Below, in pieces: positions 5,152 to 63,500 of a DNA stretch of 64,000 nt. Every line of letters begins with the position of its first letter. Within the stretch, counting starts at the first letter, position 1. The stretch comes from Candidatus Saccharimonadales bacterium (lineage in GTDB: Bacteria; Patescibacteriota; Saccharimonadia; Saccharimonadales; 2-12-FULL-41-12): the NCBI GenBank assembly GCA_025451045.1, contig JANWLD010000001.1:5812-69811 (forward strand). Reading direction: 5' to 3'. The notes beneath the pieces are model-generated. The model made no database searches, was not told the origin of the DNA, and worked only from the letters and a program-made list of their open reading frames with translations. The translations under genes and the position numbers were made by a program.

Positions 5152-5210
5152 ATTTATTTTCCTTGTTTAATTACTGGCAATAATTATAACAGATACAAAA
5201 AAGCGCATGA

Positions 5211-5238
5211 GGTATGATGTATTAGGTATAAGGCAAAA
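5211..5238. repeat. heptad array, GGTA flavour
   Basis: GGTATGA TGTATTA GGTATAA GGCAAAA, in phase, directly upstream of xerC ATG 5241. Confidence 0.6.
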
Positions 5239-9951: not shown

Positions 9952-9979
9952 GTATGGGGTATAAAGTATTAGGTATGAA
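9952..9979. repeat. heptad array, GGTA flavour
   Basis: GTATGGG GTATAAA GTATTAG GTATGAA: GTA at 9952, 9959, 9966, 9973. Confidence 0.6.
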
Positions 9980-9981
9980 GC

Positions 9982-9998
9982 CAGCGGCTTCGCCGCTG
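9982..9998. other. GC-rich hairpin downstream of pilD
   Basis: CAGCGGC-TTC-GCCGCTG, 7-bp stem. No U-tract on the pilD strand. Confidence 0.4.
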
Positions 9999-10025
9999 TT
10001 CTTCTGTCGTTTCATACTATATACG

Positions 10026-10862
10026 TCATACGTTATACAAGCTCAGGTAGTGGTTAATTATTGAAGTGCCGAATAATTGGACGATTATTGCGGCCATTAT
10101 CAGAAACGGCCCGAAAGGAATCCGTGATTTAGGACCGATTTTTTTGGTAAACATCATTGGCAGGGAGTAAACCGTTCCCAGCAGTGACGCCAAAAACAGC
10201 ATCAACAGGGCCGGCCAGGGGCCGCCGACGAGCAACCCGAGCAAAAAGCCAAGCTTAACATCGCCGCCGCCTATCCAAGAGCCTTTTGAGACCTGAAATA
10301 GCACATAAAACAGCCCGCCGCCTATCAACATCCCAATGATACTACTCTTTATAATATCGGTGTCCTGAGCGGCTAACGCACTGATGACTACACCTAGTAT
10401 CGCAATAAATATTAGAGGAAAAATTACCTTATTCGGTAATATCATATATTTTATATCATATATGGTTAGTATCATGAAGCCAGCTACAAACACCAGCCAA
10501 AGGGCAAAAGCAGCTGCATTTTGGCCCGATGACAGGTCATACGGCCAAAACAAGTAGGAAAACACGAACAGTAGCACCGTAGAGGCCTCTACCAGCGGAT
10601 ATTGCGGACTGATAGGCTGATTACAATACCGGCATTTTCCGGCTAGTATCAGCCAGCTAAATAGCGGTATCAGGTCTTTGGCGCCCAACATATGGCCGCA
10701 GTGCGGACAAAGGCTTCGGCCGCTTCTGATGGAATATTTAGCCCTTTCGCTGTTAGCCGCCTTGGGATGTTCTTCCCGCCAGTGCAAACGATACACAAAA
10801 GCATTTATAAAACTTCCCAGGCACAAACCAAGAATAACCAAGCCGATTATTATCATTAGCAA
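10026..10862 (-). CDS. pilD: prepilin peptidase / N-methyltransferase (A24 family)
   Basis: 278 aa polytopic membrane protein. Zn-finger CPHCGH...CRYC and catalytic-Asp motif GGGDVKL. Confidence 0.9.
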   Translation of the reverse strand: MLMIIIGLVILGLCLGSFINAFVYRLHWREEHPKAANSERAKYSIRSGRSLCPHCGHMLGAKDLIPLFSWLILAGKCRYCNQPISPQYPLVEASTVLLFVFSYLFWPYDLSSGQNAAAFALWLVFVAGFMILTIYDIKYMILPNKVIFPLIFIAILGVVISALAAQDTDIIKSSIIGMLIGGGLFYVLFQVSKGSWIGGGDVKLGFLLGLLVGGPWPALLMLFLASLLGTVYSLPMMFTKKIGPKSRIPFGPFLIMAAIIVQLFGTSIINHYLSLYNV

Positions 10863-11455: not shown

Positions 11456-12676
11456 TTATTTAACTATGGTCTGGCCTGCCAAACCGTAGATTGGCAGAAG
11501 TACGGCCGCTACTACAATAAACGCGACTACACCTAATATAACCATCAGAACCGGCTCGATTATCGTTGAAATCGCCTTTATCTGGTTATCGACCTCTTTT
11601 TCGTAATAATCGGCAGTTTTTTCCAGCATATCTTCCAAAGCGCCCGATTCCTCCCCTATTCTAAGCATATTAGGTACCAGTACTAAAAAGTTCGGGTCGC
11701 CTTCCAGCGCAGTGGCCAGGGATTTGCCGCCCTTTACTTTCTCGATAGCGTTTTTAATCGACCTCTCTATATGCACATTGTTAATGGCCCGGCTGACCAC
11801 TTCCAGCATCTTGATAAGCGGTATTCCGCTGGAAACCAGCGTTGAACCGGTGCGCGCAAAACGAGCCATATAAACTTTCATAAACAACGGTCCAATCGGC
11901 GGGACGGTCATCTTGAGCTTGTCGATAACCTGTTTGCCCGGACCGGTACGGGCATAACGGGTAGTCGCGATAACAGCAATAATTATGAGTATTAATACCA
12001 CCCACCAGTACTTCGTGACAAAATGTGAAACACCTAAAAGAGCTTTGGTTATAAAAGGTAGGTTAGCGCCAGGGATGTCCTTGTAGATTACTTCCACTTG
12101 CGGCATGACTTTTACCACCATGAAGCCCACGACTCCGCCCATTACCAAAAGTACTATCGCCGGATAAGCCATAGCGCCGCGGATTTTACCGGCAATTTCG
12201 GCGTCCTTTTCCTGTTGGTTGGCGATGCGCTCCAAGGCGTTATCTAAAGTTCCAGACACTTCTCCAGCGGCAACCATGTTGATGTAAACATCATTAAAAA
12301 CCCTTGGATGCTGAGATAAAGCTTCAGACAAGGCTTTCCCGCCTTCTACATCGGTAATAATCTGGTTGATTACTACTTTGAACGCTTTGTTCTCGGTTTG
12401 GCTTACTACGTTGCGCAGGCTTTGGACCAAAGGCAGGCCGGCATTAATCAGCGTTGACATCTGGCGTGAAAAAATCACCTTGTCTTTGGTCGCAATACGG
12501 TTTCTGAATTTGGAAATAGGGTTAGAAGAAGGGCCAGTAAGCGGTTTTATCTCAAGAGGCGCCAAGCCTTCTTTGCGGATAAGTTTGGCGGCGGCGGCTT
12601 CGTTGTCGGCTTGTACTTCTGCTTTTATTTTTTGGCCGGTTGCCGGATCCCGCGCCGTATATGAAAAAGTTAACAC
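11456..12676 (-). CDS. pilC: type IV pilus platform protein (T2SS F family)
   Basis: 406 aa, duplicated GspF domains, 3 TM segments. GTG start with GGAGG RBS. Confidence 0.9.
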   Translation of the reverse strand: MLTFSYTARDPATGQKIKAEVQADNEAAAAKLIRKEGLAPLEIKPLTGPSSNPISKFRNRIATKDKVIFSRQMSTLINAGLPLVQSLRNVVSQTENKAFKVVINQIITDVEGGKALSEALSQHPRVFNDVYINMVAAGEVSGTLDNALERIANQQEKDAEIAGKIRGAMAYPAIVLLVMGGVVGFMVVKVMPQVEVIYKDIPGANLPFITKALLGVSHFVTKYWWVVLILIIIAVIATTRYARTGPGKQVIDKLKMTVPPIGPLFMKVYMARFARTGSTLVSSGIPLIKMLEVVSRAINNVHIERSIKNAIEKVKGGKSLATALEGDPNFLVLVPNMLRIGEESGALEDMLEKTADYYEKEVDNQIKAISTIIEPVLMVILGVVAFIVVAAVLLPIYGLAGQTIVK

Positions 12677-12695
12677 GTCGCAACCTCCGGTTGCT

Positions 12696-12768
12696 TAGGT
12701 TCTAGCGAATAGGGACTAGTGAATAGGCCAAACCCTAAAACCTCTAACCTATGACCTATGACCTTATG
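12696..12768. repeat. inverted pair of heptad arrays (TAG x5, then CCT x5)
   Basis: TAG at 12696, 12703, 12710, 12717, 12724. CCT at 12734, 12741, 12748, 12755, 12762. Followed by hairpin ATGATGT/ACATCAT at 12766-12792. Confidence 0.75.
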
Positions 12769-12793
12769 ATGTTGAGTAAAGCGAGACATCATT

Positions 12794-13883: not shown

Positions 13884-15680
13884 TTACGCGTTATCCTCCG
13901 CCGCCACGCGGTTAACTTCGGCTATTGAGGTATATCCGGCCAGTGCCTTAAGGTAACCGTCTTCTCTCATAGTTACCATGCCATTAGCTACCGCCGCTTT
14001 TTGTATTTCGGTGCTTGTGGAGTGTTTGAGTATCAGTTGTTGAATCATCTCATCCACCTGAAAGACCTCGTATAACCCCATGCGACCTTTGTACCCCCCT
14101 GGTGTCTCCGGGCTATCTTTACCCTTGAACAAAGTATAACCGTTTTGGCTGGCCAGAGGCAAGTCCGGGAAACCGAGATCTTCAATGACAGCTTTTCTTG
14201 AAGCCTCGTCCTTTGGTAGCAAGCGGCCGATACTTTTTTGTACGGCTTCCGTTTCGATAACATCGGACTGATATTTTTCCTTGCTGTCAGCTAGCCGGCG
14301 TACCAGCCGCTGGCCGATGACAGTATGCACGGTCGAGGCTATCAAAAACGGCTCTATCCCCATATCGAGCAACCGCGGCAAGATGCCCGCAGCCGAATTG
14401 GTATGAAGAGTAGAAAATACCAAGTGGCCGGTCAATGCGGCCTGTACAGCCAACGTAGCGGTTTCTTTGTCGCGGATTTCTCCAATCATTACCACATCGG
14501 GGTCCTGGCGCAGGATTGATCTTAGGCCAGACGCAAAGGTCAAGCCAACTTCCGGATTAACTTGTATCTGGTTAATCCCGTCCATTTTATATTCCACAGG
14601 GTCTTCAAGCGTAACGATATTTATAGTGTCATTTTTTATTTCCTGGATAAGCGCGTACAACGAAGTTGACTTGCCCGAGCCGGTCGGGCCGGATGTAAGT
14701 ATCATTCCGTTTGGTCTTTTAATACTTCTTCTAATGGTCCGAAGCGCGCGGCCATGATAGCCCATGTCTTCAAGCTTTAGGCTGGTGCCGGTCTTGTCCA
14801 GCAACCTGATAACAACTTGCTCCCCCCATACGACTGGCGATATAGCGATACGCAAATCAATAGCAGTATCCTGATCGATTGCCACAGTAAATCCGCCGTC
14901 TTGAGGTATTCTGTGTTCATCAATTTTTAGATTGCTCAAGATTTTTATTCGGGAAATCAATGGCGGTTCTGTGGATTTTGGAAGTTTCATTATTTCGCGC
15001 AAAACGCCGTCTATCCGACAGCGGATTTTTAGTTCATGTTCCAGCGGTTCAATATGGACGTCACTAGCGCGGTGCTTGGCGGCATATTCCAAAATAGTGG
15101 AAAGTGCCTTGCTGATTGGAGAATCTTCTACGATGGTTTTTATTTGGGTTTCAGCTTTGGTTTTGGTTTTGTCAACTAGCAGTTGCTGGACATCTATGGA
15201 GTCGCTCATTGCCTTGGCCACGTCTGCTTCTACATCGTCGGCATATTGGCGCAAGACTTGTCTTATACCTTGCTCGCTGGCTGTGTAAACTTTAATCGGG
15301 CGGTTTATCCTCTTCGCCAGATAATCCACGGCCTGGACGTTGTCCGCGTCCAACATGGCTACTACCAGCCTGCCCTTTATTTGTCCAAGCGGTACGGCCA
15401 TGTATCTTTCAGCTATTTCCTTTGGTATTACCCTTAGTAATCTTTTATCAATACGCGCGTCCATCAGGTTTACATACGGTATATGATTGACTTTCGCGAT
15501 AATCTTGGTCAAGGCTTCGTTGGGTAAATGGCCTTCCTTTACCAAAAATCCGAAAAAGGGCGTAGATGAAGTCTTGGCTTTTTCTTTAAGAACAGCCAAT
15601 TTAGCATCTGTAAGATACCCCTCTTTGACCAAGTTTTCTTCTACCATTTTCTGGCTAGCTACTGATAAAACACTACTCAT
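13884..15680 (-). CDS. pilB: type IV pilus assembly ATPase (GspE/PilB family)
   Basis: 598 aa. N-terminal GSPII-like domains, Walker A GPTGSGKST, STLHTNSAAG. ATG overlaps the stop of the upstream four-helix-bundle ORF (ATGA). Confidence 0.9.
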   Translation of the reverse strand: MSSVLSVASQKMVEENLVKEGYLTDAKLAVLKEKAKTSSTPFFGFLVKEGHLPNEALTKIIAKVNHIPYVNLMDARIDKRLLRVIPKEIAERYMAVPLGQIKGRLVVAMLDADNVQAVDYLAKRINRPIKVYTASEQGIRQVLRQYADDVEADVAKAMSDSIDVQQLLVDKTKTKAETQIKTIVEDSPISKALSTILEYAAKHRASDVHIEPLEHELKIRCRIDGVLREIMKLPKSTEPPLISRIKILSNLKIDEHRIPQDGGFTVAIDQDTAIDLRIAISPVVWGEQVVIRLLDKTGTSLKLEDMGYHGRALRTIRRSIKRPNGMILTSGPTGSGKSTSLYALIQEIKNDTINIVTLEDPVEYKMDGINQIQVNPEVGLTFASGLRSILRQDPDVVMIGEIRDKETATLAVQAALTGHLVFSTLHTNSAAGILPRLLDMGIEPFLIASTVHTVIGQRLVRRLADSKEKYQSDVIETEAVQKSIGRLLPKDEASRKAVIEDLGFPDLPLASQNGYTLFKGKDSPETPGGYKGRMGLYEVFQVDEMIQQLILKHSTSTEIQKAAVANGMVTMREDGYLKALAGYTSIAEVNRVAAEDNA

Positions 15681-16072
15681 TTGTTTTGACCTCCGTCAAA
15701 ACTAGGTTCTAGGTCATAGGTTTTAGGTTCTAGATTCTTATATAAGGAAAAAAGCATTTTCTGAATTTCCGTTAAACTGCCTATTAAATTACCGACTTCT
15801 CGCTTGTAAACATCTTGTGCAATCAATAGCTGGGTCTCGAGTTCTCCAGCTGAGCCGCGGGCTATATTTAAAAATTGCCTATACTCTTTTCTGCTATTCC
15901 TTTGATTTCCTTCGGCTATATTACTGGGTATTGAAACTGCGCATCGTTGCAATTGGCTTGATAGACCAAATTGCTCTGTTTTGGGTAGTTTGGCGGTAAA
16001 TTTATAGACATCCTTGGACAATTGAAAAGATTTCTGCCAAACAATTAAGTCTTTGTAAGAAGAAATAACCAT
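15677..16072 (-). CDS. four-helix-bundle protein (S23p / 23S rRNA intervening-sequence protein family, Avd-like)
   Basis: 131 aa. Family hallmarks LIVWQKS, SQLQRCAVSIPSNIAEG, ARGSAGELETQL. The C-terminal 15-18 aa (NLEPKTYDLEPSFDGGQNK) are read from the heptad array at 15703-15737. Confidence 0.85.
   Translation of the reverse strand: MVISSYKDLIVWQKSFQLSKDVYKFTAKLPKTEQFGLSSQLQRCAVSIPSNIAEGNQRNSRKEYRQFLNIARGSAGELETQLLIAQDVYKREVGNLIGSLTEIQKMLFSLYKNLEPKTYDLEPSFDGGQNK
15703..15737. repeat. heptad array, TAGG flavour (left bracket of the four-helix-bundle gene)
   Basis: TAG at 15703, 15710, 15717, 15724, 15731. Contains TAGGTTTTA at 15717-15725. Confidence 0.8.
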
Positions 16073-16114
16073 TAGTATTAACTATAACCTACCGTTAGCG
16101 TTGTATCCATAAAA

Positions 16115-16149
16115 CCTAACCCCTGTCCCCTACAACCTACTCCCTATTC
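16115..16149. repeat. heptad array, CCTA flavour (right bracket, inverted polarity)
   Basis: CCT at 16115, 16122, 16129, 16136, 16143. TAAAACCTA at 16110-16118 is the exact reverse complement of 15717-15725. Confidence 0.8.
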
Positions 16150-18854: not shown

Positions 18855-18889
18855 GTATGAAGTATGGATTATTTTGTATGCTGTGCTTA
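18855..18889. repeat. heptad array, GGTA flavour (degenerate)
   Basis: GTA/TTA/GTG at 18855, 18862, 18869, 18876, 18883, in the pilM 5' leader. Confidence 0.5.
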
Positions 18890-18977: not shown

Positions 18978-19012
18978 AGCTACAAGCTCAAAGCTAAGAG
19001 CTGAGAGCTGAA
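18978..19012. repeat. heptad array, AGCT flavour (left bracket of the four-helix-bundle pseudogene)
   Basis: AGCT at 18978, 18985, 18992, 18999, 19006. Confidence 0.75.
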
Positions 19013-19028
19013 ATGATAAAATGTCCGG

Positions 19029-19373
19029 ATGGTTACCCAATCGTTCAAAGATCTAATCGTCTGGGAAAAATCAAATAAGCTGGCCGTGGATATTTATAAA
19101 ACCTTTTCTAGTTGCAAGGACTTTAGTTTTCGAGACCAAATACAACGAGCGTCTGTATCTATTATGAATAACATTGCCGAAGGTTATGCCCGAAGGAGTG
19201 ATGCCGCTTTCAAGAATTTTTTAAAAATTGCCAAAGGCTCAGCGGCATAAGTTGAGTCTATGCTTTTTCTAGCAGAAGAATTAGAATACATCAACAAGCT
19301 ATCCCAAGAAAAACTAACTGAGCAAACAGAAGAGGTGTCAAAACTGCTTTCCGGATTCATAAAAAAGCTCTAG
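19029..19373 (+). pseudogene. four-helix-bundle protein gene interrupted by a single in-frame TAA
   Basis: The 73-aa ORF (LIVWEKS, ASVSIMNNIAEG, AKGSAA) stops at TAA 19248-19250, exactly where the family and the intact paralog have Glu (GSAGELETQL). The same frame continues VESMLFLAEELEYINKL...KKL to TAG 19371-19373. Confidence 0.75.
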
Positions 19374-19406
19374 CTCTGGACTCTTAGCTCTCAGCTTTTA
19401 GCTAAA
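19372..19406. repeat. heptad array, AGCT flavour (right bracket, pyrimidine-rich version)
   Basis: AGCT at 19372, 19386, 19393, 19400, with GACT at 19379. Shares AGCTGAGAGCT (as reverse complement) with 18978-19012. Confidence 0.7.
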
Positions 19407-26302: not shown

Positions 26303-27384
26303 GTCTATCGATTGGGATTGTGGGATTGCCAAATGTCGGCAAATCCACGCTTTTTAACTCCTTAACTGGCAATATGATACTAGCCGCCAATTACCCATTT
26401 GCCACGATTGAGCCGAATACCGGCATAGTGCCGGTTCCCGACCCGCGCCTGGAAAAACTGGCCGAAATGTATAGTTCAAAAAAAGTTGTTCCTGCAGCAG
26501 TCACCTTCGTAGATATAGCCGGCCTAGTAGCCGGCGCAAGCGAGGGCGAAGGCCTCGGTAATCAGTTTCTTGGTCATATCAGAAGCTGCGCGGCTATCTG
26601 CCATGTCGTCAGGGCTTTTGAAGATAGCAACGTCCAGCATGTCGACAGCGTACATAGCCCTAAAAAAGACATTGAAACTATAAATACTGAACTAGTCCTC
26701 GCCGATTTACAAACTATTGATAAAAGATTGGCAAAAATTGAAAAGGAAGCCAAAGCGAACCCAAAAATCCGGCCGTTTGTTGAAGAAATCAAAAAAGCAA
26801 AGGGCGTATTGGACGAAGGCACGCCACTTTTTGCCAGCTCTTTGCTCTCTGCTTTTAGCTCCGAGCTCCTGGCTGACTTGCAGCTTATAACAATGAAACC
26901 TGTAATCTACTTATTTAACGTGGATGAAACTACTCTAGCGGACGAGAAAAAACAGGCTGAATTGAAAGCTTTGGTCGGTAATGCCAAAGCTGTATTTGTC
27001 TGCGCCAAACTGGAGGAAGAACTTAAAGGCCTGTCCGACGACGAAGCACAAGAGTTACTTCAAACCTACGGCGTCAACGAACGCGGCCTGGACAAAGTCA
27101 TCCATAGCGCTTACGAAGCGCTGGGTTTGCAAAGCTTTTTAACTGCCGGGGAGAAGGAAGTCCGTGCCTGGACAGTTAAAAAAGATGCGACCGCGCCGCA
27201 AGCCGCCGGCGTAATCCATACCGATTTCCAGCGCGGCTTTATCGCCGCCCAAGTGATAAATTATGATGACTTGGTATCGAGCGGCTCGGAAAGCGCGGCC
27301 AAAGCCGGCGGGAAAGTCGCAACCGTTGGCAAAGACTACATAATGCAACCCAACGACGTAGTGGAGTTCAGATTTAATGTGTAA
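26299..27384 (+). CDS. ychF: ribosome-binding ATPase YchF
   Basis: 361 aa. G1 GIVGLPNVGKSTLFN and a C-terminal TGS-like domain. ATGA overlap with the doc stop. Confidence 0.9.
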   Translation: MSLSIGIVGLPNVGKSTLFNSLTGNMILAANYPFATIEPNTGIVPVPDPRLEKLAEMYSSKKVVPAAVTFVDIAGLVAGASEGEGLGNQFLGHIRSCAAICHVVRAFEDSNVQHVDSVHSPKKDIETINTELVLADLQTIDKRLAKIEKEAKANPKIRPFVEEIKKAKGVLDEGTPLFASSLLSAFSSELLADLQLITMKPVIYLFNVDETTLADEKKQAELKALVGNAKAVFVCAKLEEELKGLSDDEAQELLQTYGVNERGLDKVIHSAYEALGLQSFLTAGEKEVRAWTVKKDATAPQAAGVIHTDFQRGFIAAQVINYDDLVSSGSESAAKAGGKVATVGKDYIMQPNDVVEFRFNV

Positions 27385-27391
27385 GACTTTG

Positions 27392-27419
27392 AGCTCTAAG
27401 CTTTTAGCTGTAAGCTAGG
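27392..27419. repeat. heptad array, AGCT flavour
   Basis: AGCT at 27392, 27399, 27406, 27413, between the ychF stop and ABC ATPase ATG 27427. Confidence 0.65.
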
Positions 27420-32277: not shown

Positions 32278-32305
32278 TTTCGCTCCTTTTCAGTCGCTTA
32301 GTTTA

Positions 32306-32369
32306 TAGGGGTTAGGTTTTAGGGGTTAGGTAGTTTGCTAGAACCTAGTCCCTAGCACCTTTAACCTAC
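32306..32369. repeat. inverted pair of heptad arrays (rpsR|efp junction)
   Basis: TAG at 32306, 32313, 32320, 32327. CCT at 32344, 32351, 32358, 32365. 32325-32367 is identical to 32625-32667. Confidence 0.8.
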
Positions 32370-32598: not shown

Positions 32599-32669
32599 TA
32601 GTTATTAGTTGCTAGTTGTTAGTCGTTAGGTAGTTTGCTAGAACCTAGTCCCTAGCACCTTTAACCTGT
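32599..32669. repeat. inverted pair of heptad arrays (ssb|rpsR junction)
   Basis: TAG at 32599, 32606, 32613, 32620, 32627. CCT at 32644, 32651, 32658, 32665. Confidence 0.8.
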
Positions 32670-55648: not shown

Positions 55649-55690
55649 AGGTTATAGGTTATAGGTTATAGGTTCAAGAATAAGAATTAA
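55649..55690. repeat. tandem heptad array AGGTTAT
   Basis: AGGTTAT x3 (55649-55669), then AGGTTCA, then degenerate AGAATAA GAATTAA. Starts 8 nt upstream of the dnaG ATG. Confidence 0.85.
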
Positions 55691-61829: not shown

Positions 61830-63500
61830 CTACATCTTTTCTGGTATTACAATGCCGAGTAGTCTTAAGCCACTGCTTAGTACGTCTGCATAGCTCCTTA
61901 CAAGTTGCAGTCGTAAGTCCGCGCGCGGATCATCTATAACCCGATTGGTCTCATAAAAGCGATTAAAGGTTTGGGACAGTTCATAAAGATAAGTACAGAT
62001 ATGGTGTGGTGACAGTTCTTCCAAAGCCAGAGTAAGCACTTCCGGATACATCGAGATTTTCCGCGCCAACGAGCGTTCTTTTGGTTCTAAATCCAAGCTC
62101 TGGGCTCTGGGCTCTGGGCTCTGGACTTTGTCTAATATGCTTTTTGCCCGAACATAGGCATATTGCAAATATGGCCCGCTGTTGCCTTCCAGACTGGCTG
62201 ACTGTTTTGCATCAAATATTACGTCACTGCCAAGGCCTGATTTTAGGAATGAATATTTGACCGCAGCCAACACTATTTCGGGCGTAACCGCCGGGTTTAC
62301 CTCTTTGGATGAGTTTTCGGCCAAGTCCAATATATCGACGGCTTTGATGATATTACCTTGGCGGCTGCTCATCTTTTGCGCTCCCGGCAGTTTGACCATG
62401 CCATGGGTTAGATGGGTAGTTTTAGAGGCCAGCTCCGGCGCGAATTTTTTGATACTTGCCAATACAACCTGCATGTACTGGCTTATCTCGTTGGCGGTTA
62501 TTACTATTGAGCGATCAAAAGCGTAATCTTTTTCTTTTTGCAGGATTAGTCCGACTTCTTTGGCTTCATAAGTCGGCAACCCTTCTTTGGTTATGAACAC
62601 GCGGGTATGCAGGCCGTCTTTTTCGCCCTCGTAGACTACCGCGCCGTCAGACTCCGAATAGATTTTCGGGGTGTTTTCTTTGACTTTCGCCTGCCCTAGC
62701 TCAGCAACGGTACTTTCCGGATAATATTTTTCAAACTTTATGCTGACCCGAGCATAGAACTTATCAAAATAATCATAGCTCCAAGCTCGGGTTGTCCAAT
62801 AAATATTACCTAGCGGCGAATCTTCGTCTTTTTTAGTCGCTACCTCATATATTCTTTTGTTTAATTCGGCGATTTCGCTTTTGGCTTGTTCGCTTTCCTC
62901 ATATGCCTTATTGCCTTTGGTGTAACATTCGCCCAGCCAATCGGCTCGTTTATCTTCATTAATCTTGTCCAGCTCATCTGGTTTTTCGCCGTCCAGCTCC
63001 TTGATTACCGTCCAGAGGCTTTTGGCGACATGAAGCCCCACGTCGCCGCCGTAATTTACCCGGTGCACCTGCGCGCCAGCCGCTTCAAAGAGATTGGAAA
63101 TAGCATCACCGACGACTGAGGTATAAAGATGACCAGCGTGCAGGACCTTAAATGGATTCGGGTCGGAATACTCGGTCACGACTTTTTTACCGGACAGACT
63201 TTTGGCCGGTTTATGCGCGTTTTTGATTGAGGTGAACAAAACCGAATCCTTGAGAGTAATATTAATAAAGCCAGGCCCGGCTACGCTGACCTCGGCTATC
63301 TGTTCGTTTTTCTTTAGTTCCAAGGTGATTTGCCGGGCAATTTCAACAGGGCTTTTACTTAGTTCTTTGCTTAATTTCAAAGCCACGTTCGAAGAAAAAT
63401 CCCCGAACTTCTCCTCCGGCCGACTTAGCTCAACTTCAACATTACTATTAAACAGTTCCGAACAAACTGTTCTTATTTGTTTTTTTAACTCCTGCACCAT
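61830..63500 (-). CDS. argS: arginine--tRNA ligase
   Basis: 556 aa. HIGH-type HAGHLY, KMSKS-type KMSSRQG, and a DALR anticodon-binding domain. Contains an in-frame heptad array. Confidence 0.95.
   Translation of the reverse strand: MVQELKKQIRTVCSELFNSNVEVELSRPEEKFGDFSSNVALKLSKELSKSPVEIARQITLELKKNEQIAEVSVAGPGFINITLKDSVLFTSIKNAHKPAKSLSGKKVVTEYSDPNPFKVLHAGHLYTSVVGDAISNLFEAAGAQVHRVNYGGDVGLHVAKSLWTVIKELDGEKPDELDKINEDKRADWLGECYTKGNKAYEESEQAKSEIAELNKRIYEVATKKDEDSPLGNIYWTTRAWSYDYFDKFYARVSIKFEKYYPESTVAELGQAKVKENTPKIYSESDGAVVYEGEKDGLHTRVFITKEGLPTYEAKEVGLILQKEKDYAFDRSIVITANEISQYMQVVLASIKKFAPELASKTTHLTHGMVKLPGAQKMSSRQGNIIKAVDILDLAENSSKEVNPAVTPEIVLAAVKYSFLKSGLGSDVIFDAKQSASLEGNSGPYLQYAYVRAKSILDKVQSPEPRAQSLDLEPKERSLARKISMYPEVLTLALEELSPHHICTYLYELSQTFNRFYETNRVIDDPRADLRLQLVRSYADVLSSGLRLLGIVIPEKM
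62096..62130. repeat. heptad array, AGCT/GGCT flavour, inside the argS CDS
   Basis: AGCTCTG GGCTCTG GGCTCTG GGCTCTG GACTTTG. Encodes KVQSPEPRAQSL on the minus strand. Confidence 0.8.

Follow-up and report, generated by a model that had tools for sequence, protein, structure and literature searches.

A probable gene-less copy of a PF05635 foldback cassette at the pilT–pilC junction of a Candidatus Saccharimonadales bacterium

PF05635 (S23p) has been an orphan family since rRNA intervening sequences (IVSs) were described in the early 1990s. A homologue is the DGR accessory protein Avd (bAvd), a pentameric four-helix bundle binding both nucleic acid and a reverse transcriptase. The intergenic heptamer repeats of bacteria (STRR, TAACTGA and the Geobacter sites) are, to our knowledge, also unexplained. 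Genes of the PF05635 family were noted earlier wedged between cas genes and in rRNA insertions of CPR bacteria, and the family is listed in PMC10053308. Ahead of its S23p ORF the IVS of Coxiella carries two to four tandem heptamers, GACAGAT, and RNase III makes its 5' cut at the first of them (PMC4990558). Paired arrays in Geobacter metallireducens have been catalogued as class 1-3 global-regulator sites and proposed to bind IHF/HU (Aklujkar 2009, PMC2700814). The TAACTGA repeats of Beggiatoaceae and the cyanobacterial STRR heptanucleotide repeats are intergenic tandem heptamers located just upstream of start codons (PMC4679880).

The element described here separates pilT from pilC in a 64,000-nt stretch of a Candidatus Saccharimonadales contig (JANWLD010000001.1; hereafter the window), where all genes around the spacer lie on the minus strand (Table 1). 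The rRNA IVSs of Leptospira, Coxiella and CPR bacteria resemble the full sibling cassette upstream of pilB, as they too carry an S23p/PF05635 ORF with complementary arms around it, and they are regarded as selfish, a further likeness to the present elements. They differ in several respects. IVSs lie inside 23S/16S rRNA, whereas the elements here occupy operon junctions in mRNA, the spacer lying between pilT and pilC; none of 40 PF05635 loci examined with Rfam fell in any rRNA gene. Unlike an IVS, the spacer copy either lost the PF05635 ORF or never carried it, its arms are arrays of degenerate heptads in place of a continuous stem, and it is apparently translated through, as predicted from its reading frame. 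In contrast to DGR Avd, no RT, template repeat or variable repeat was found near any element in the window.

The Geobacter sites also resemble the spacer: each comprises a pair of arrays, one per strand, with about 3-5 tandem units of 7-9 nt in an array and about 100 nt from one array to the other, set between neighbouring co-directional genes (proB–proA and moaA–mosC, for example); they differ in unit sequence, and PMC2700814 draws no link to PF05635 or translation. In STRR and TAACTGA repeats, stop triplets at period 7 close reading frames. Descriptions of them give direct repeats of identical heptamers, all facing one way, that lack an inverted partner and an associated gene, whereas the spacer has degenerate units and a second, inverted array. 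REP/REPIN-RAYT systems and the Correia/NEMIS MITEs are likewise short palindromic non-coding copies, scattered and co-transcribed at operon junctions, with a rarer protein-coding version between the same repeats. Unlike these systems, the present elements encode no Y1 or other transposase fold, just a four-helix bundle, and their arms are tandem heptads.

Table 1. Coordinates of the features discussed, in positions of the window.
Feature	Position	Strand	Remarks
pilB	13884-15680	-	Pfam T2SSE
pilT	12794-13864/13876	-	Pfam T2SSE
pilC	11456-12676	-	Pfam T2SSF
pilT–pilC spacer	12677-12793		117 nt
pilT stop codon TAA	12794..12796	-	
pilC start codon GTG	12674..12676	-	
Bridging (relay) ORF, 40 codons	12670..12792	-	
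7-bp hairpin ATGATGT/ACATCAT, 13-nt loop	12766..12792 (stems 12786-12792 / 12766-12772)	-	both predicted folds
5' arm on mRNA strand, five heptads, core (T)AGG; CCT array on + strand	12734..12764	-	
Centre/loop between arms, 7 nt	12727..12733		
3' arm on mRNA strand, five heptads, core CTA; TAG array on + strand	12696..12726	-	
Shine-Dalgarno hairpin GCAACC-GGA-GGTTGC, presents or sequesters the new pilC SD (GGAGG)	12680..12694	-	predicted fold
Full sibling cassette	15677..16145	-	3 kb away, upstream of pilB
AGG-core array of full cassette	16115-16145	-	
PF05635 ORF, 131 aa, four-helix bundle	15677-16072	-	E 1.5e-37
CTA-core array of full cassette	15703-15733	-	
Gene-less sibling, TAG/CCT cores, rpsR–efp	32299..32367	-	gene identities from translations
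Gene-less sibling, ssb–rpsR	32599..32667	-	gene identities from translations
Gene-less pair, other unit family GTAT/ATAC, pilD stop to next gene	9952..10038	-	
Second PF05635 cassette, AGCT-core heptad arrays	18978..19403	+	HMM match 19020-19247, E 4.8e-22

A preliminary description of this DNA had placed five phased TAG heptads and five phased CCT heptads in the 117-nt spacer, and both sets were recovered: on the plus strand TAG starts at 12696, 12703, 12710, 12717 and 12724, and CCT at 12734, 12741, 12748, 12755 and 12762, both at a period of 7. The centre between the arrays, reported as 8 nt, counts as 7 nt. On the mRNA strand the 5' arm reads AAGGTCA, TAGGTCA, TAGGTTA, GAGGTTT, TAGGGTT and the 3' arm CTATTCA, CTAGTCC, CTATTCG, CTAGAAC, CTAAGCA. 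The 7-bp hairpin reported beside the pilT stop is present in both folds that we predicted, and the spacer does contain a word complementary to one in the arrays elsewhere: CTAAAACCT occurs at 12735, and its reverse complement AGGTTTTAG at 15718 and 32314, within the TAGGTTTTA words at 15717 and 32313. Inside pilT, directly upstream of its stop, GAGAAG is a remnant of the ancestral pilC Shine-Dalgarno sequence. Searches for conventional signals were negative: at the gathering threshold no Rfam family matched the spacer (a tRNA is the sole Rfam match in the window) or any of the 40 PF05635 loci scanned, no intrinsic terminator was found on its minus strand, and a promoter scan (-35/-10) gave one promoter-like match against 1.0 expected. 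We therefore rejected a terminator or promoter, as the scan results do not rise above chance.

The periodicity extends well beyond this junction. The window contains 20 arrays of at least four phased identical 3-mers at period 7; the same count gives 0-4 arrays at periods 5, 6 and 8-11, and 0.4 +/- 0.6 in Markov-1 random sequence, so the pattern is far above chance. Heptanucleotide tracts are common products of slippage and pilus genes are often phase-variable, a general precedent for reading the spacer as a simple-sequence contingency locus. The units, however, are non-identical outside a 3-4-nt core, which makes slipped-strand mispairing unlikely, and slippage cannot produce inverted pairing; the length of 117 nt moreover leaves a relay frame open across the spacer. 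With 20 arrays where 0.4 are expected, chance fares no better, and we regard an origin by chance or slippage as scarcely credible.

Pairing of a TAG array with a CCT array (TAGx5 with CCTx4-5) occurs four times in the window, and three of these pairs are gene-less; the pairs other than the spacer start at 15703/16115, 32299/32344 and 32599/32644. The pair starting at 15703/16115 belongs to the intact cassette upstream of pilB and has the same TAGG/CCTA cores as the spacer. The two elements that flank rpsR agree base for base over 42 nt, covering the centre and one arm, and diverge in the remaining arm, which suggests local gene conversion or half-element copying. Coherence of units within the window is partial, limited to the TAGG and AGCT families, and the copies have just the 3-4-nt core in common. 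The second PF05635 ORF is probably a pseudogene, because an in-frame TAA at 19249 replaces the invariant Glu of its GSAAE motif. Solo (half) heptad arrays were also seen at 5207-5233, 27392-27416, 55649-55674, 62097-62124, 26837-26874 and 18856-18879; at least three of them (5207, 27392, 55649) stand directly 5' of a Shine-Dalgarno sequence and start codon, a layout resembling that of the Beggiatoaceae TAACTGA repeats.

The association of inverted heptad arrays with PF05635 genes recurs across many phyla. An alignment of PF05635 homologues yielded 80 loci from more than 10 phyla (Patescibacteria, Proteobacteria, Bacteroidota, Planctomycetota, Acidobacteriota, Clostridia and others, plus one archaeon); the results hold for the subfamily reachable from our query, at least about 45% identical to it, and not necessarily for DGR Avd proteins. 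Over 165 nt on the upstream side, the strongest self-period is 7 at 60/80 loci, and downstream of the gene it is 7 at 65/80, the rest being mostly 8 or 9 and concordant on both sides. An explicit array finder recovered arrays on both sides at period 7 in 50 of the 80, at 8 in seven and at 9 in two; among 400 random pseudo-genes from the same loci, which served as controls, period 7 appeared on both sides of six. The flanking consensus units are reverse-complementary (at p-1 or more of p positions) in 37/59 cassettes versus 0/400 controls. Units differ between loci, and arrays range from 2 to 19 units, with the run of phased identical cores peaking at 4 upstream and 5 downstream. In 53 of 75 cassettes the genes on either side point the same way as the PF05635 gene. 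The 3' array starts within the ORF itself: CTAGAAC CTAAAAC C encodes the conserved C-terminus KLEPKT, with the TAG of the third unit as the usual stop. Two gene-less heptad pairs were also noticed in other phyla, in a planctomycete (L009:43-133, AATGACC/GGTCATT) and a flavobacterium (L056:3071-3170, GTACAAT/TTGTACT), each near the PF05635 cassette of its own genome and separate from it.

The spacer follows this cassette plan. Its TAGx5 and CCTx5 arrays are inverted, the pattern of 37/59 PF05635 cassettes, and it separates two co-directional genes, as the plan expects. In both arms the G-rich strand points toward the centre when read 5'->3' (skew +0.23/-0.17), an arrangement shared by 33/40 cassettes and 13/15 gene-less elements. 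We considered whether a G-rich upstream arm marks orientation relative to transcription and rejected this, since an inverted repeat reads alike on both strands; G-rich-inward arms thus define a structural type of palindrome rather than a polarity. An HMM search of the spacer found no remnant of a PF05635 ORF, and the sibling with the same cores (15677-16145) has an intact one. The likening of the spacer to an empty version of the cassette around the four-helix-bundle gene, with nothing between its arms, is upheld, and that gene is PF05635 (E 1.5e-37). Probably the spacer is a gene-less (miniature) copy of the PF05635 foldback cassette that inserted between pilT and pilC and is tolerated through relayed translation; within this reading, the identity of the spacer and its insertion are well supported. 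It appears to belong to a widespread variant of IVS-type elements that is apparently undescribed: our full-text literature search returned no paper linking PF05635 genes to flanking inverted arrays or gene-less copies, which does not prove that none has been published.

That the spacer is an insertion, as the preliminary description had proposed, is borne out by the alignment of related junctions that it had called for. PilT homologues place the organism in Candidatus Saccharimonadales. Among 81 related pilT–pilC junctions, most are compact: 61 measure 1-19 nt, 5 measure 29-76 nt and 15 measure 96-167 nt. In the two closest relatives (L001 and L002) the gap is 1 nt and the pilC Shine-Dalgarno sequence (GAGGAG) lies within the last pilT codons. 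Inverted heptad-array pairs account for 11-12 of the 15 long spacers, with a different unit in each (for example CAATTAT, TTTACAG, TTACAGA, GAGTCAC, AATGTTC, GTATTAN, CTTACTA and CAGTNNN), and three are plain long hairpins. When mapped on a neighbour-joining tree of PilT, most long spacers occur singly beside compact junctions. This scatter implies a junction that was ancestrally compact and has been hit repeatedly, and the comparison supports well the view that pilT–pilC is a recurrent insertion site that was once gap-free. The plain hairpins, long non-periodic inserts in L112, L115 and L161 (z -4 to -5 in the first two), each carry a bridging ORF, which implies that the junction accepts several kinds of palindromic element.

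Comparison of filled with empty junctions revealed neither a recognisable target-site duplication nor a target motif. Although inverted arms are present, the elements thus differ from MITEs and REPINs in this respect, and also in that copies within a genome mostly do not match in sequence: near-identical copies with a cognate transposase or RAYT were not found. Just one of 30 pairs of elements within a relative's pil locus has matching units, and REPIN-like coherence of units within a genome was accordingly rejected for the relatives. No full PF05635 gene occurs at pilT–pilC in the 81 relatives, and Saccharimonadales pil loci hold 39 arrays versus no PF05635 gene in about 500 kb. With units mismatched within loci and arrays far outnumbering genes, the data demonstrate neither copying and pasting by a resident master element nor the decay of full cassettes, and neither fits cleanly. 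Upstream of pilB, the PF05635 cassette is present in the window, L165 and L166, absent in L001 and L002, and reduced in L003 and L004 to its 5' arm and a stump of 39-41 codons. L165 has another, divergent PF05635 gene upstream of pilM (L165:1264-1596), and because of it the whole pil operon seems to attract such cassettes.

These cassettes upstream of pilB indicate what is conserved in the arms. In the orthologues of the window, L165, L166 and L003, the AGG cores upstream and the ACCT cores downstream are invariant in exact 7-nt phase, while the bases between them drift. As the upstream arm is non-coding, retention of its cores points to purifying selection on the phased cores. Conserved phased cores would also suit paired sites for a host DNA-binding regulator of the IHF/HU type, as proposed for the class 3 sites of Geobacter metallireducens, where PMC2700814 lists eight cases in which two sets of five tandem heptanucleotides, one per strand, separate neighbouring genes. 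The units, however, differ among elements of one genome and at one and the same junction, so no single regulator could recognise them all; the elements sit inside operons and not at promoters, and the link of arrays to PF05635 genes is universal. A host regulator is therefore a very unlikely explanation. Under the reading of the spacer as a cassette copy, the arms are most likely predicted binding sites, in phase, for the pentameric PF05635 protein, with about five units per arm. The PDB relatives of the PF05635 ORF, 2gsc (XCC0516) and 2rld, have five chains each, and XCC0516 is an assembly of five four-helix bundles in the reference quoted in PMC3936711; the match between about five units and a pentamer is a purely numerical one. 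We also sought a code by which each protein recognises its own unit. It received weak support, as the protein-unit correlation (Mantel r=0.155) is driven by close relatives and identical units accompany proteins merely 45-54% identical.

The phased stop triplets had been taken to close all six reading frames. Three plus-strand and two minus-strand frames are indeed closed, but sense frame 1 runs without a stop across all 117 nt, and this error was an informative one. The ATG of the relay ORF lies 1 nt after the pilT stop, the ancestral position of the pilC start, and its TAA falls within pilC, 4 nt beyond the first base of the GTG. Three heptads fall in register with this frame and read AAG, GAG and TAT, with no stop, while six of the remaining seven contain stops (hypergeometric p = 0.03). 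Bridging ORFs span 16 of 18 elements versus 3.3 expected from shuffles (P<5e-6), beginning no more than 13 nt beyond the preceding stop codon and ending at -2 or +4 of the downstream start. This over-representation implies that an open frame, and not frame closure, is what appears to be selected. All 15 long pilT–pilC spacers, heptad or not, have a bridging ORF of 33-56 codons, and the GTAT/ATAC element at 9952-10038 has one of 38 codons; the two gene-less siblings of the ribosomal operon (ssb–rpsR and rpsR–efp) have none. The PF05635 ORF upstream of pilB reads through its 3' array until its stop overlaps the pilB ATG (ATGA), an extension found in three orthologues, and may play the same relay role. 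TAG is the commonest triplet in the units (19/48), and a stop is present in about half of them; stop codons were accordingly rejected as an essential property of the unit.

It might be argued that the 40-aa ORF is itself the feature of interest, a small protein gene in which the heptads are incidental. The ORF does have an ATG and is tightly coupled at both ends, and all 15 long pilT–pilC spacers have a counterpart. However, the peptides of the 16 bridging ORFs (33 to 56 aa) are unrelated to each other in sequence, the periodicity is 7 nt and not 3, and arrays without an ORF occur at ssb–rpsR and rpsR–efp. A small protein gene is thus a highly improbable account of the spacer.

Instead, the position and frequency of the bridging ORFs suggest, with strong statistical support, a relay of translational coupling that keeps pilC translation tied to that of pilT. 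A small hairpin encloses the relay start codon in L003, in L162 and in the window, where the codon forms part of the 5' stem of the 12766..12792 hairpin. Ribosomes terminating on pilT would melt this small hairpin and reinitiate at the ATG 1 nt beyond the stop; they would then translate 40 codons through the ladder and the Shine-Dalgarno hairpins, and termination 4 nt inside pilC would permit initiation at the new Shine-Dalgarno sequence and GTG. The operon may tolerate the insert because translation is relayed across it, and the element itself would be a selfish or neutral passenger. Shine-Dalgarno regions supplied by elements have a mean folding energy of -8.2 kcal/mol, compared with -5.0 kcal/mol for those of other genes (P=0.02). 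A stem-GGA-stem hairpin (for example GCAACC GGA GGTTGC) holds such Shine-Dalgarno sequences at 12680-12694 and 15684-15701 in the window and at 14 related loci. The 15-nt hairpin GCAACCGGAGGTTGC is common to the window and a distant relative, L101, though their heptads differ.

A different role, in RNA, can be imagined for the spacer as a host-selected element, its ladder hairpin serving RNase III/RNase E processing or transcript stabilisation so that pilT and pilC mRNA levels become uncoupled, like REP/BIME or Correia elements, with no relation to the PF05635 protein. Elements of this kind sit within co-directional operons, and many in the relatives fold as regular ladder hairpins with 4-6-bp rungs, most junction elements reaching z -2.5 to -5. 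RNase III is also known to cut rRNA IVSs, in Coxiella at the first heptamer (PMC4990558). Fold prediction on the spacer, one of the checks proposed beforehand, is less encouraging. Its 7-bp hairpin is predicted, and its complementary ends are predicted to form a stem as a weak ladder hairpin, but the sense-strand fold does not exceed shuffled sequence in stability (z -1.0 to -1.5; antisense strand, z -0.7 to -3.1). Positions compared between arms comprise 858 Watson-Crick pairs, 70 transversions, 23 sense G-U and 28 antisense G-U. The mismatches thus show neither a G-U wobble bias nor strand asymmetry (23 vs 28), the signs of selected RNA pairing, and transversions are commoner; selection for RNA pairing of the arms is not supported. 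Moreover, conservation or complementarity extends to just 3-4 of the 7 positions, most relatives do without a spacer, and a relay ORF implies that ribosomes melt the structure. We consider a host-selected RNA element unlikely. In the gene-less cassette copy that we favour, the arms may form a weak ladder hairpin secondarily, which RNase III could cut as it does in rRNA IVSs; on sequence grounds, they are candidates for PF05635 sites or for such a hairpin.

In summary, the association has three parts: PF05635 genes lie almost always between inverted 7-9-nt arrays, gene-less copies occur at operon junctions, and a recurrent hot spot carries an apparently selected frame for translation through the insert. 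It is tempting to speculate, although we hold this as a tentative and on balance doubtful proposal, that PF05635 IVS proteins and inverted heptad arrays belong together in a single pan-bacterial class of mobile foldback element that has gone unrecognised, in which the pentamer measures or binds arrays of about 5 x 7 nt and gene-less copies colonise operon junctions, where relay ORFs domesticate them. If true, this would unify rRNA intervening sequences, the paired sites of Geobacter and possibly STRR-type repeats under a single mechanism. The association offers testable hypotheses, namely binding of the arrays by the protein, processing by RNase III and relayed translation. Further, the finding matters for genome annotation, because spacers of this kind get called spurious small ORFs or regulator sites.
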